Positions 51,641 through 64,000 of a DNA stretch of 64,000 nt are shown piece by piece. How positions within the stretch are numbered: position 1 is the stretch's first letter; each line of letters begins with the position of its first letter. The notes below the pieces were generated by a model. That model saw nothing but the letters and a program-made list of their open reading frames with translations. It ran no database searches and had not been told where the DNA came from. The DNA is from Dictyostelium discoideum (Eukaryota), in the NCBI GenBank assembly GCA_000004695.1, contig CM000150.2:3872001-3936000 (forward strand), read 5' to 3'. The position numbers and the translations under genes were made by a program.

Positions 51641-54025
51641 ATGAAACAAATAATTTTCATTTTTTTAACTCTATTTATTTCATTAATATTTTCCGAATCA
51701 TCTGTTTATAATAAATTTGAATTCTTAGGCGAAGGATGTTCAGATTTTGGTGATAATTTAACAATTTCAAATTGCCAACCTTTATGTACCAACCATTTTG
51801 CTTCAATTTCACCAAGTAGTTCTATTTCCAATGGTTTTGATATTATTTTATATAATAATTCAGATCAATCATGTAATGTACCACTAATTCCAACCTTAAA
51901 TTTTACTTGTCTTGATAATGAGACTCCAGTTAAATTTGAAGATTTTGCAGTTATTTGTCAACAACAACAACCACCACAACCAGTATCAAAATTTATTAGT
52001 TTCCAATTTTTAGGTGATTCATGCCCAGATAATGGTGATTATTTAAATGTTTCTAATTGTCAAAATGCATGTGGAACTGATTTAATTTCAATTTCTCCAA
52101 GTCCAGATGTAACAGATGGTTTCATTGTAAATTTTTATAATTTAACTGATACTCTTTGTAAAACACCAATTGCTAATGATGTTTTCCAATGTCAAAATAA
52201 TGTCAGTGAATCTATAATTAATGATGGTACTAATGAATTTGATATCTATTGTAGTACCACTGTTCCAACACCAGCTCCATTACCATCTCCTTCCCAATTT
52301 ACTAGATTCTTATTGTATGGTGATTCATGTCCAGATAGTGGTCAATATTTAAATATTTCAAATTGTCAAAATACCTGTGGTACTGATCTCGTTTCAATTT
52401 CTCCAAATCCAACTGTTACTGATGGTTTCCTTGTAAATTTTTATAATTTAACTGATACTCTATGTAAAACCCCAATTGGTAATGATGTTTTCCAGTGTCA
52501 AAATAATGATACCGAATCAATAATCAGTGATGGTGATAATGATTTTGAATTATATTGTGAATATCCAGCAACATTATCCCCATTACCAACAAAAACTCCA
52601 TCACCAACTCCTTCACCAACTCAATCACCAACTCCTTCACCAACTCCTGCCCCATCAAAATATAATGAGTTTGAATTATTGGGCGATAATTGTCCTTCTG
52701 CTGGTGATCAAGTTGTAATTGGTCTTTGTCAAAATGCTTGCAATTATAGATTGGTTAATATTATTCCAAGGGATGATGTTTCTGATGGTTTTATCATTGA
52801 GTACTATAATATTACTGATACTTATTGTCAAACTATTTTAGATACAGACGAATTCCAATGTTCTGCCAGTACTTCAGTTGTTGATTTGTTCAATATTAAT
52901 TGTGAAGCTGTTACTCCTGCACCTCCATCTCCAACTCCAAATCCTTCAAATGGTAATATCTTTGGATTTTATGGTGATTATTGTCCTTCTGCTGGTGATA
53001 GACTTGAAGTTGGACTTTGTCAAAATGCTTGTAATTATAAATTACTTAGTATCATTCCTAGTGACGATGATAATGAATCTTTTAATGTTCAATACTTTGA
53101 ATTAAATGATACCTATTGTCAAACCGTTGTTGATAATGATTATTTCGAATGTGCAGATGGTGAATCAAATATTGATGATTTCCAAGTTAATTGTTTAGTA
53201 ACCCCATCACCATCACCAACTCAAACTCCTTCACCAACTCAAACTCCAACTCAAACTCAAACTCCAACTCAAACTCCAACTCAAACTCCAACTCAAACTC
53301 CAACTCAAACTCCAACTTCAACTCCATCAAGATATAATTATTTTGAATTCTATGGTGATAATTGTCCAGAAGATGGTGATTATTTAGAGGTTGGTCTTTG
53401 TCAAAATGCATGTGATTATTTAAGAGTTAGTATCATTCCAAGACAAGGTGTTACTGATGGATTTACTGTTCAATATTATAAATTAAATGATACAGTTTGT
53501 GATAATCAAATTGATTCTGATGTTTTCCAATGTTCAGGTAGTGCTTCATCTATTGATTATTTTGATATTTATTGTGATGTTTCTACACCATCGCCAACTG
53601 AAACAACAACACCAACCCAAACACCAACTCAATCTCCTTCAACATCAGAATATGATGGTTTTGATTTTTATGGTCAAGTTTGTCCAACCACTGGTTATAA
53701 TCTTACAGTTGGAAATTGTCAAAATCTTTGCGACTATAGAAGAGTTTCTATTATTCCATCCGAAATAACTCAAGATGAATTCCAAGTACAGTTTTATCAA
53801 GTTTCAGATAAAAAATGTGCAAATGTTATTGAATCTTCATCATTACAATGCAATAATGGTGGTAACTCTACAACAATTGATCAATTTAACATTTATTGTG
53901 AAAAATCTTTTACCCCAACTAATACATCCTCTAATTCAAGCCATGAAAATATTGGTTATAAATTTGAAACTAATAATTTATTAATATTACTTTTATTGTT
54001 AATTTCAATTTTTATTTTTTATTAA
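51641..54025 (+). CDS. Secreted, probably GPI-anchored protein, 794 aa. It has a signal peptide, seven tandem Cys-containing domains of about 110 aa, PT/PS/(TQTP)n linkers and a hydrophobic C-terminal tail.
   Basis: Signal peptide is MKQIIFIFLTLFISLIFSES. The repeat consensus is F(E/Q)FLGD.CP..GD.L.(V/I)(S/G)NCQN.C.....(V/I)SI(S/I)P...V(T/S)DGF.V.(F/Y)YN(L/I)(T/N)DT.C.T.I..D.FQC...... Linkers include TPSPTPSPTQSPTPSPTPAPS and PTQTPTQTQTPTQTPTQTPTQTPTQTPTSTPS. The tail after SSNSSHENIGYKFETNN is LLILLLLLISIFIFY. Confidence 0.75.
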   Translation: MKQIIFIFLTLFISLIFSESSVYNKFEFLGEGCSDFGDNLTISNCQPLCTNHFASISPSSSISNGFDIILYNNSDQSCNVPLIPTLNFTCLDNETPVKFEDFAVICQQQQPPQPVSKFISFQFLGDSCPDNGDYLNVSNCQNACGTDLISISPSPDVTDGFIVNFYNLTDTLCKTPIANDVFQCQNNVSESIINDGTNEFDIYCSTTVPTPAPLPSPSQFTRFLLYGDSCPDSGQYLNISNCQNTCGTDLVSISPNPTVTDGFLVNFYNLTDTLCKTPIGNDVFQCQNNDTESIISDGDNDFELYCEYPATLSPLPTKTPSPTPSPTQSPTPSPTPAPSKYNEFELLGDNCPSAGDQVVIGLCQNACNYRLVNIIPRDDVSDGFIIEYYNITDTYCQTILDTDEFQCSASTSVVDLFNINCEAVTPAPPSPTPNPSNGNIFGFYGDYCPSAGDRLEVGLCQNACNYKLLSIIPSDDDNESFNVQYFELNDTYCQTVVDNDYFECADGESNIDDFQVNCLVTPSPSPTQTPSPTQTPTQTQTPTQTPTQTPTQTPTQTPTSTPSRYNYFEFYGDNCPEDGDYLEVGLCQNACDYLRVSIIPRQGVTDGFTVQYYKLNDTVCDNQIDSDVFQCSGSASSIDYFDIYCDVSTPSPTETTTPTQTPTQSPSTSEYDGFDFYGQVCPTTGYNLTVGNCQNLCDYRRVSIIPSEITQDEFQVQFYQVSDKKCANVIESSSLQCNNGGNSTTIDQFNIYCEKSFTPTNTSSNSSHENIGYKFETNNLLILLLLLISIFIFY

Positions 54026-56008: not shown

Positions 56009-56022
56009 TTGTTAAAAATATA

Positions 56023-56095
56023 TGAGATAGATGGGGATCGAACCCACGACCTAACCCGTGTGAAGGGCTCGTGATAACCACTACACTACTTTCCC
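56023..56095 (-). tRNA. tRNA-Val (anticodon CAC), 73 nt.
   Basis: Sequence GGGAAAGTAGTGTAGTGGTTATCACGAGCCCTTCACACGGGTTAGGTCGTGGGTTCGATCCCCATCTATCTCA. The A box TAGTGTAGTGG and B box GGTTCGATCC are intact. The anticodon stem is AGCCC/GGGTT and the loop is TTCACAC. The acceptor stem has one A.A mismatch and one G.U pair. The D arm is identical to vertebrate tRNA-Val. Confidence 0.65.
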
Positions 56096-56109
56096 ATAGG
56101 CTGGAATGT

Positions 56110-58626: not shown

Positions 58627-59600
58627 TTAGGTGATACTATTATCTATTCTATTTTCGGAGAGTGAGTTTAGCTTATCAGATCTTTTAACGAATTCGACCA
58701 TGGTAAAGGCACATCTATTTTGAAAATCATCACAGATCTTTTCTAAAGCTTTTTTAGTTAAACTATAAGTTCCTCTTCTACCTTGTTTTAAATGTTTTTT
58801 TGATTTTGTAAGTGCTCTTGCAGCAACTGTCTCAGTATAAAGTGTACCTTTTTTAAATCTGTGTGTGTAATTATTATGAAAAAAAAAATTAATATTATTA
58901 TAACTATTAAATAATTATAACTATAATAATAAATATAATAATAAAAAATAAAATATTGAAAGAAAATAATGACTACTTACAAACACATTATACACATTTT
59001 ATATGTATTTTTTTTATAATTTGATAATGGTTGAAATTGTAAACATTCATAACATTGTAAAAAAGTTTTTTCATCAGAATCAATAAAAATATCATTTTTG
59101 TCAAACTATTGTGAAAATGGAACAATTAAATAGTATTCATTTTCAATATTTTCCTTTACAAAGTATGATGATCTTGGATATTTTAAATAATGATCCATAA
59201 TTACTTTATTAATATCAACCCCATAATGTTTACTAGCAATATGTGAAAAATATTGAGTTCGTAAACGACAGCAAACCATACAATAACTATTTGGATCATG
59301 ATTATTAGTTTTTCTTTTTTTACCTATTCTAATTGATTCTTGATCTTTTTCAACTGATACTTTATATGGTGATGGTGAAGAAGATGATGGTGATGGTGAT
59401 AGTGATGGTGATGGTGATGGTGATGGTGATAGTGATGGTGATGGTGATGGTGATGGTGATGGTGATGGTGAGGATGTAATTGTTTTATTACTATTATCAA
59501 TTGCTTCATTATTAATTTTATTATAATTTATACTACAACTATTATAAATATCTTGTTGTGATTTTTTATTAAAATAAAAAGAAGTACCAAACTCTTCCAT
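58627..59600 (-). pseudogene. Two-exon gene encoding a Cys/His-rich protein with BED-type zinc-finger-like motifs, interrupted by an in-frame TAG. Exons 58981..59600 (TAG at 59106..59108) and 58627..58858. It is a candidate hAT-transposase-derived gene or pseudogene.
   Basis: Exon 1 reads MEEFGTSF..(SP)n..NSYCMVCCRLRTQYFSHIASKHYG..(TAG)..FDKNDIFIDSDEKTFLQCYECLQFQPLSNYKKNTYKMCIMCL. Its donor is TGT TT|GTAAGT. Exon 2 follows the acceptor acacacag|A and reads FKKGTLYTETVAARALTKSKKHLKQGRRGTYSLTKKALEKICDDFQNRCAFTMVEFVKRSDKLNSLSENRIDNSIT*. The C-x2-C-x10-H-x5-H spacing fits a BED finger. A 54-nt GTAAAG..AATAG interval (59161..59108) could remove the TAG if it is spliced. Confidence 0.4.
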
Positions 59601-59968: not shown

Positions 59969-60636
59969 TGAATAATGGTTTTAATAATAATAATAATTTT
60001 AATAATAATAAAAATAATATTATTAATCTATTTCCCCAATTTCTTTGAATTACGATCTCGGGTTTAATTTTTAAAAAAAAAAAAATAAGAAAAATGGTGG
60101 TAATTGTTTTTATTGTTTATTTTTTTATTTAAATAATGAAAAAATATATTACGTTATTTTTAAAGAATTAATTTCATTTAAATTTTAATAAAAAATCCTA
60201 TATCTTATATTTACAATATTGTATAGAAAACTGAATTTTATCTAAAATTATTTAGGGAAGTTTAATAGATAATAAAAAAAAGAGGCCAAATTACCCATAG
60301 ACCTATAAAATTACTATTCAAACCTAAATACTGAAATTTTTTAATCAGGCCAAACTTTTGGAGAGTTGACTTTTTTTTTTTCTTTTTTTTTTTTTAAATA
60401 AAATAAATATAATTTATATAGCACAATGAAGGAATATTAAAACGAATAATTTAAAAATTAAATAGAAATTTTATATTAAAAATATTTTATAAAAAAAAAA
60501 AAGTAAAAATAAATAAAAAAAATTAAAAAAAAAAAAAAAAAAAAAACTATTATAAAGATTTTAATTGTCTTTTTCATATATATATATATTAATTAAATGG
60601 AAATTTTAAATGAAAAAACTCCTTTTTAACTTTCAA

Positions 60637-61662
60637 ATGATTGGATTTTTGATAAAGAAATTAAAAAAATTTGAAAAATCAATAAATAACTCCAATAATA
60701 TTATTGATCAAGATTTATTTAATTTAATAAAAATGTTTTTCATTTGGAATTTTACAAGATGATGAAAAAAGTAGAATTGTAGTAGAGGATTTATTTAAAA
60801 TGGCAATTTATTGTTTTCCATTATTAGTTGATCAAGAACAATTAAATTTAATTGGTGAAATTATTATGGGGTTTTCTATTAGATGATATTTTTGAAGAGG
60901 TTCCAATCATTAGAAAACAATATGAAATTCAACAATTAATTTGGTTATTTGGTCAATCCAATGAAATTTGCTCACAATTTGATAAATGGGCAATTGAATT
61001 AAGGAATACAATTCAAAACTATTGTGGTGATAATAAAATCCTTTTCAATAGATTCATAAATTCTGGTATTACAACCATTGAAGGTACTCTTTCATTTCAT
61101 AATATTAATTATTCATCAATTTATCAATTGGATAATTATATAAATATTCGTATTCAAAATAGTTCAGTTGGATTTTTAAATAATTTTAATCATCTTTTTA
61201 TTTTAAAATCACTTCCTACAAGTATGATCCTATTTTAGAGAAAATGGAAAAAATTCAATCTTTATTACTTGGTTTAATAAATGATCTCTATAGTTTTAAA
61301 AAAGAAGTTTTATTAAATGAAGAAAAGAAAAATATAATTTATTTATTTTCAAATGAAAAACCAAAACACCAACAACAAAAACCACAACCACAACAAAAAG
61401 AAAAAGAAAATAATCAAGATGACCAAAAAATTAAAAAGTTTATGATTTAATAAATGATTACATTTCAACTTATAAATTTTTAGAAATAAAAGTTAAAGAA
61501 AAATATATTCATACTTTTAAATTAAAATCTCAAGAAATTGAATTTATTAAAGTTATAAATTCTCAAAAATATTTAATTTATGGTTCCATAAAGTATTCAA
61601 TAGAAAGTAGAAGATATAATTGTAAAGAATTAAATCAATTATTATATAAATTTAAAAACTAA
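60637..61662 (+). pseudogene. Terpene synthase (class I, microbial-type)-like pseudogene. Reading continuity is broken by at least three frameshifts and in-frame stops.
   Basis: Successive frames encode MIGFLIKKLKKFEKSINNSNNIIDQDLFNLIKMFFIWNFTR*, then ..RIVVEDLFKMAIYCFPLLVDQEQLNLIGEIIMGFSIR*, then ..LLWGFLLDDIFEEVPIIRKQYEIQQLIWLFGQSNEICSQFDKWAIELRNTIQNY.. (DDxxE metal-binding motif LLDDIFEE), then MEKIQSLLLGLINDLYSFKKEVLLNEEKKNIIYLF.. (NDxxSxxxE, the NSE triad), then ..KFLEIKVKEKYIH..YNCKELNQLLYKFKN*. The total span of about 340 codons equals one TPS gene. The frame breaks have no GT..AG intron of plausible size. Confidence 0.5.
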
Positions 61663-61754
61663 ATTAAATTAAAATAAAAAATTATAATAATTATAATAAT
61701 AATAATATTGTTTAAATAAATTATTTTTTTATTTTTATTGATTATTTATTTTGT

Positions 61755-61785
<31 letters not shown>

Positions 61786-61817
61786 CCAATACTATCACTC
61801 TATTACTATTATTAATT

Positions 61818-61870
<53 letters not shown>

Positions 61871-61878
61871 TTATTGTC

Positions 61879-64000
<2,122 letters not shown>

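Follow-up and report, generated by a model that had tools for sequence, protein, structure and literature searches.

Nine terpene synthase (TPS) genes, DdTPS1-9, were reportedly described from Dictyostelium discoideum by Chen et al. in PNAS in 2016. The complement of the species is elsewhere given as "nine full-length genes" (PMC6524965), and a dictyostelid TPS survey in which predicted proteomes were scanned with a Pfam HMM describes families that grow by species-specific duplication (PMC6156593). The gene described here comes from the same organism group as DdTPS1-9 and shares with them the PF19086 domain, a length of ~330-380 aa, the DDxxD/E and NSE motifs, a sensor Arg and an RY pair, but it lies at another locus (DDB_G0269960, on chromosome 1), stands outside the nine and is disabled in strain AX4. 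Its lineage, represented by the intact orthologue P0001, is ~25% identical to DdTPS6 (protoillud-7-ene synthase; P0043) and ~26% identical to DlTPS1, the orthologue of DdTPS6. We analysed a window, by which we mean the whole 64-kb stretch of DNA, and conclude that it very probably contains a unitary pseudogene, the remains of a tenth class I TPS gene of the D. discoideum group, which is deeply divergent and of the microbial type.

Extent and catalytic motifs of the locus

A three-frame translation of window positions 60500-61750 revealed TPS-like coding sequence spread across all three plus-strand frames. With P0001 as the query, tblastn resolved this signal into six collinear pieces that span residues 1-347 in the frame order 3, 1, 2, 3, 2, 1 (combined E 3e-138; Table 1), and the same search found no second TPS locus in the 64-kb window. 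We combined the pieces by hand across frames into a joined translation of 351 aa, which scores 38.1 bits against the Pfam profile PF19086 (Terpene_syn_C_2), above the curated cut-off of 23.7 bits; for the orthologues the scores are 53.4 and 40.2 bits. Used as the query in a PDB sequence search, the joined translation returned marginal matches (E 0.26-0.39). The TPS homology at this locus is real and far beyond chance. The gene is a single exon in the intact orthologues, as seen in their DNA alignment to the pseudogene. A full-domain open frame is absent from the window, where one nonsense codon and five frameshifts interrupt the coding sequence and the longest ORF, of 128 aa, contains DDxxE and lacks the NSE motif.

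The segment had been described in a first-pass annotation as a class I TPS pseudogene, and the Pfam match, the tblastn pieces, the lesion-level alignment and the fold match of the orthologue all bear this out; the profile search on joined frames and the frameshift-aware alignment that it proposed are those reported above. Its start at position 60637 needs correction, since the true ATG lies at 60597 and 13 codons at the start, the nonsense codon among them, had been left out. Both metal-binding motifs are preserved where it placed them. In an alignment of the family that includes distant relatives (A2), D99, R190, N236, D237, S240, E244 and R332 are invariant, and the first Asp of DDxxE is the invariant one. 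R190, which we take to be the pyrophosphate sensor from what is generally known of class I TPSs of the microbial type, sits 46 residues upstream of N236, the Asn of the NSE motif (P0001 numbering), and the R332-Y333 pair is present in P0001. The hallmarks of a class I TPS are all found, namely DDxx(D/E), (N/D)Dxx(S/T)xxxE, a sensor Arg ~46 residues upstream of NSE, and RY.

Table 1. Features of the TPS locus, its tblastn pieces, its lesions and its intact orthologues. Positions are those of the window unless another sequence is named.
Feature	Position	Strand or frame	Basis or detail
Whole TPS pseudogene	60597-61662	+	Ancestral ATG to ancestral TAA; DNA alignment to L002/L003, tblastn with P0001
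AX4 gene model DDB_G0269960 (185 aa, "hypothetical protein")	60800-61662	+	Exact peptide segments mapped to the window
DDxxE, first metal-binding motif (DDIFE in GFLLDDIFEE)	60882-60896	+	Peptide mapping
NIRIQNSS with presumed pyrophosphate-sensor Arg	61143-61166	+	R190 in the orthologue
NSE triad, second metal-binding motif (NDLYSFKKE)	61280-61306	+	Peptide mapping
ESRRYNCK with C-terminal RY pair	61603-61626	+	R332 invariant in A2
Lesion 1, nonsense substitution AAA (Lys) to TAA, codon 11 (K11*)	60627-60629	+	Ancestral frame
Lesion 2, +1 frameshift, extra A	60663-60669	+	A7 against the A6 implied by in-frame forms; frame 0 to 1
Lesion 3, 17-bp deletion (AAAATCAAGATTATTTA, codons KSRLFK)	~60728-60729	+	AAAA microhomology; frame 1 to 2
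Lesion 4, 2-bp (TA) deletion in ATTATTATATGG	~60864-60865	+	Just upstream of the DDxxE helix; frame 2 to 0
Lesion 5, 7-bp deletion (TATACTC)	61222-61223	+	TA microhomology; frame 0 to 2
Lesion 6, -1 frameshift, A lost	61433-61437	+	A5 against A6; frame 2 to 1
K/P/Q-rich low-complexity linker, in frame, +45 bp, not disabling	61356-61400	+	Length varies between alleles
tblastn piece 1	P0001 residues 1-19	Frame 3	
tblastn piece 2	P0001 residues 20-42	Frame 1	
tblastn piece 3	P0001 residues 49-96	Frame 2	
tblastn piece 4	P0001 residues 92-216	Frame 3	
tblastn piece 5	P0001 residues 213-273	Frame 2	
tblastn piece 6	P0001 residues 273-347	Frame 1	
Intact orthologue L002	ACTFIR_004345, assembly labelled D. 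discoideum		347 codons, single exon
Intact orthologue L003	ACTA71_010528, D. dimigraforme		361 codons, single exon
Intact orthologue L007	L007:3833-4939, D. cf. discoideum ACTFIZ		368 codons, single exon

Disabling lesions and the annotated gene models

Base-level DNA alignment to the intact orthologues placed six lesions in the window allele, a nonsense codon and five indels that shift the frame (+1, -17, -2, -7 and -1; Table 1). The codon hit by lesion 1 reads AAA in every other allele. Around lesion 2 the window exceeds L002 by 10 nt, and in the intact L003 and L007 the excess is 9 nt, which keeps the frame; the 17 bases missing at lesion 3 are retained by L002, L003, L004 and L005, the last two being the alleles of ACTFIW and ACTFIY. 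The frame path predicted from the lesions, 0>1>2>0>2>1, is the one observed by tblastn and peptide mapping. The earlier description had counted at least three +/-1 frameshifts and two in-frame stops: the frameshifts are real, but only two of the five indels are +/-1, and K11* is the sole true nonsense codon, the remaining in-frame stops being consequences of the frameshifts. Short direct repeats (AAAA, TA and TA) border the deletions in the DNA alignment, as is typical of slippage or microhomology-mediated deletion.

Two further length differences keep the frame, the low-complexity linker in Table 1, at whose position L003 and L007 likewise have long linkers, and a loss of 6 nt at 60953. An apparent second in-frame stop at orthologue codon 272 and an "E181*", both in the branch counts, were set aside as artefacts of the alignment adjoining the -1 deletion and of single-site reconstruction. 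Programmed frameshifting or recoding is a poor fit to five shifts of differing size plus a stop, none of them conserved in the orthologues.

The AX4 RefSeq annotation draws a three-exon gene on chromosome 1 over the same sequence, DDB_G0269960 (XP_646431.1; UniProt Q55CQ0; P0023). The model begins at an internal ATG at 60800, and its first "intron" (60855-60897, 43 nt) removes LLDDIFE, while the second (~61222-61482, ~260 nt) has GT..AG ends and removes the NSE motif. No Pfam match was found in the 185-aa product, and we found no mention of DDB_G0269960 in the literature searched. The model of the same sequence in the ACTFIT assembly (P0005, 205 aa) contains a 28-nt "intron". The initial view that no GT..AG intron can bridge the interruptions was too strong, given the two that the AX4 annotation draws.

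It could accordingly be asked whether DDB_G0269960 is a genuine three-exon gene for a shortened, non-catalytic TPS derivative of 185 aa. The model stands in both RefSeq and UniProt, the ~260-nt length and GT..AG ends of its second "intron" are plausible, and a comparable spliced model exists for the ACTFIT assembly. Against this, the first "intron" is only 43 nt in AX4 and 28 nt in ACTFIT, the introns of both models lie exactly over frameshifts, and the supposedly intronic stretches are matched in the single-exon orthologues by conserved coding sequence that runs on without a break. The two automatic models also conflict with each other, and the 185-aa product lacks the first 70 residues, DDxxE, NSE and any Pfam match. 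We therefore consider a genuine spliced gene very unlikely; the alignments indicate that the intron-based gene models at this locus are artefacts of the lesions that we place in a pseudogene. Because the AX4 model has neither the catalytic motifs nor the domain, TPS surveys based on predicted proteomes would miss the gene.

Orthologues, origin of the lesions and recurrent loss

Only five homologues were found in 5.8 billion proteins, all of them from recent Dictyostelium assemblies, and no papers on these assemblies or on D. dimigraforme genomes were found in the literature searched. L001-L005 have common downstream neighbours, a long minus-strand gene followed by COX5B. The intact genes of L002, L003 and L007 all have this downstream setting, and the shared arrangement identifies them as orthologues at the same position. 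The intact orthologues are 76-83% identical in protein sequence to the repaired window translation. ACTFIR_004345, the ACTFIZ ORF and ACTA71_010528 resemble the window gene in being syntenic and single-exon and in having all motifs, and differ from it in having open frames; they are labelled "hypothetical proteins".

We estimated dN/dS at 0.13-0.24 among the intact alleles, which points to purifying selection on the intact orthologues. Comparisons of the AX4 allele with intact alleles gave dN/dS of 0.22-0.28 at dS of 0.15-0.22, and the AX4 branch carries ~10 nonsynonymous and ~5 synonymous changes once the two artefacts are removed. Changes specific to AX4 include N108I, D181Y and F323S, which might also bear on activity. 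Since the AX4 ratio is hardly above the family background, inactivation is recent when set against the lineage splits, and a loss of constraint on this allele could not be proved from the substitution pattern by itself. The assemblies labelled "D. discoideum" that carry intact or single-stop alleles stand at dS 0.15-0.19, and their flanking DNA differs by 1-8% from the window. They may represent cryptic sister lineages rather than conspecific strains, and for this reason we do not claim within-species polymorphism of an intact allele.

Downstream, a long ORF on the minus strand (61879-63714, running on beyond that point) encodes poly-N, poly-Q and His-rich (HHHH/DH) tracts and has no Pfam match on record; it is kept in all related loci as models of 608-788 aa, with repeat lengths that vary by lineage. 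Upstream, the ORF at 59106-59600 has a long (SP)n tract at 59324-59509 (minus strand), with poly-His in an alternative frame, and differs by ~8.5% from the L002 and L004 copies, which exceeds the divergence of the TPS coding sequence. A 794-aa ORF lies farther upstream (51641-54025, plus strand), ~6.5 kb from the TPS locus, and in L007 a 794-aa gene (L007:1-491) ends ~2 kb upstream of a partial TPS duplicate that begins at L007:2501. A tRNA-Val gene is found at 56022-56096 on the minus strand of the window. Such genes are a classic target of Dictyostelium retroelements. If the two 794-aa genes correspond, the window may hold extra DNA near tRNA-Val in comparison with L007.

The first-pass annotation had suggested a decayed paralogue, and we asked how the gene relates to other TPSs. 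Its nearest nonorthologous relatives are the EukProt proteins P0007-P0010 (gene3957-4944_t etc.), which are 27-29% identical to P0001 (E 1e-43 to 1e-23) and match PF19086 as the window gene does. When 1.84 billion representatives were searched exhaustively with HMMER, only 18 proteins reached E<=1e-3, and no named TPS of D. discoideum (DdTPS1-9) or of D. purpureum (DpTPS) was among them. A search with a seven-sequence alignment was dominated by low-complexity words and had no DdTPS protein among the matches listed; when the alignment was freed of low complexity, clade I TPSs including DdTPS6 were found, and DdTPS1, 3, 4, 5, 7, 8 and 9 were not among its matches. These comparisons point to an old lineage separate from the DdTPS proteins, of which DdTPS6 is the sole DdTPS1-9 member compared directly. 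No second AX4 protein of this TPS lineage was found in the database. With intact syntenic orthologues and no second copy in the window DNA or the database proteins, the locus would be a unitary pseudogene.

A partial tandem duplicate does occur in a relative, at L007:2501-2875 (GCA_054859235.1), ~1 kb upstream of the intact orthologue. It comprises the first ~122-125 codons, is annotated as the 154-aa P0035, and shows dS of 0.21 and dN/dS of 0.11 against the full copy. No such partial duplicate is present in the window.

That the window gene is a recently duplicated, decayed copy of one functional DdTPS gene, a paralogue in the classical birth-and-death sense, would accord with the species-specific duplication through which dictyostelid TPS families grow (PMC6156593), and with the duplicated 5' third of this very gene in L007. 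A second TPS locus is nevertheless absent from the window, identity to DdTPS6 is merely 25%, the exhaustive profile search contained no DdTPS, and the syntenic position is occupied by intact orthologues in other lineages. We regard such a paralogue as extremely improbable and retain the unitary pseudogene as our reading of the locus.

The lesions themselves recur in independent data. The assembly GCA_054883475.1 (L001) aligns to window positions 60400-61900 over 1501 bases with 0 gaps and one mismatch, at 61786 and outside the gene; over a longer alignment of 7875 bases the identity is 99.8%. Run SRR26869268 yielded a Logan contig (L006) that spans 60371-61707 and contains all six lesions, with no indel inside the gene; its 7 SNPs in 1.3 kb mark it as a different strain from the window. 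The ends of the contig lie in homopolymer and repeat DNA, which would fit an RNA or a DNA source equally. Seven Logan contigs encode a 68-aa ORF whose limits are set by lesions 5 and 6 and which owes its existence to them. All lesions are older than the split from the SRR26869268 strain (dS 0.011), and at least two distinct strains of the AX4/NC4 lineage are fixed for them. The other possibility raised at first, that sequencing or assembly errors in AT-rich DNA, such as homopolymer miscalls, conceal an intact functional TPS gene, draws on the two lesions of six (+1 and -1) that lie in error-prone A-homopolymers, yet the -17, -2 and -7 deletions and the substitution are untypical of homopolymer errors and the lesions or the ORFs that they bound are repeated in the second assembly and the Logan contigs, by which the artefact reading is effectively refuted and its chances reduced to almost nil.

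Two other alleles of this gene are broken. The L004 allele has R157* (TGA) as its sole lesion. The L005 allele, from D. cf. discoideum, shows two frameshifts peculiar to it, together with a 12-bp deletion by which the NSE motif has lost its N and D, and its dN/dS is 0.43-0.6. Because the window, L004 and L005 are broken by different lesions, the gene was lost at least three times independently. The proteomes of D. citrinum (ACTFIU) and D. firmibasis (RB653) contain no match to this TPS lineage, although both give DdTPS2/6-like matches; in these species the gene may be absent, or broken and so unannotated.

Automatic annotation has treated these alleles in a similar way. The models P0003 (L004:5001-6044) and P0004 (L005:6448-7504) splice out the same 20 residues, which hides a -1 frameshift in one model and the TGA stop in the other, and P0004 also takes in an exon from upstream that is unrelated. 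As such models of broken alleles show, several of the "hypothetical proteins" annotated in the new assemblies are pseudogene artefacts.

Fold, proposed ancestral function and implications

The all-alpha class I fold was assessed on a model of the intact orthologue, and was found there. The AlphaFold model of P0001 has a pLDDT of 82 and a pTM of 0.84, and the best 50 PDB matches in a fold search, at TM scores of 0.7-0.8, are without exception class I terpene synthases, among them enzymes for sesquiterpenes, monoterpenes and diterpenes. The bacterial and fungal enzymes of solved structure T-muurolol synthase (9hqd), pentalenene synthase (6wkd), 1,8-cineole synthase (5nx7), BcBOT2 (8h6q) and Cop4 (8gr7) share the fold of the model as single alpha-domain proteins, with TM scores of 0.7-0.8 over ~300 residues and a like layout of motifs, but have only 12-18% sequence identity to the Dictyostelium protein.

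We hypothesize that the ancestor was a single-exon gene of ~350 codons for an all-helical enzyme. This enzyme would have bound a prenyl diphosphate through three Mg2+ held by DDxxE and NSE, ionised it and cyclised the resulting carbocation. From the fold matches, the family and what is established about the fold and motifs, farnesyl diphosphate is the most likely substrate, and it is on the same grounds that we infer the enzymatic activity and product class of the intact orthologues. In the AX4/NC4 lineage the gene was inactivated by one nonsense substitution and five indels of the slippage or microhomology type, such that no full-length enzyme can come from the AX4 allele. In related lineages the orthologue has been kept intact and constrained, and in two others it was knocked out independently, a history of recurrent loss of a dispensable gene of secondary metabolism.

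Across the relatives compared, the gene is intact in three lineages; one has only a single stop, and two, AX4 among them, show heavy decay. We give roughly even chances to the broader proposition that this is a tenth, uncatalogued dictyostelid TPS lineage whose functional state varies among very close relatives. The locus adds an uncatalogued gene to a known family and is otherwise a conventional case of birth and death among secondary-metabolism genes. For the reference genome, the correction is that DDB_G0269960 is a dead TPS gene and not a 185-aa protein with an unassigned role, and the TPS repertoire of the D. discoideum group comprised at least ten lineages rather than nine. If the proposition is true, the standard strain AX4 would lack a terpene that its wild relatives still make, and the repeated loss would suggest a volatile whose value is ecologically conditional, for example in defence or in kin or prey signalling. 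Close lineages with intact and independently dead alleles would then offer natural loss-of-function contrasts for volatile profiling, and the alleles together would form a natural knockout series in which the purpose of dictyostelid terpenes could be tested.
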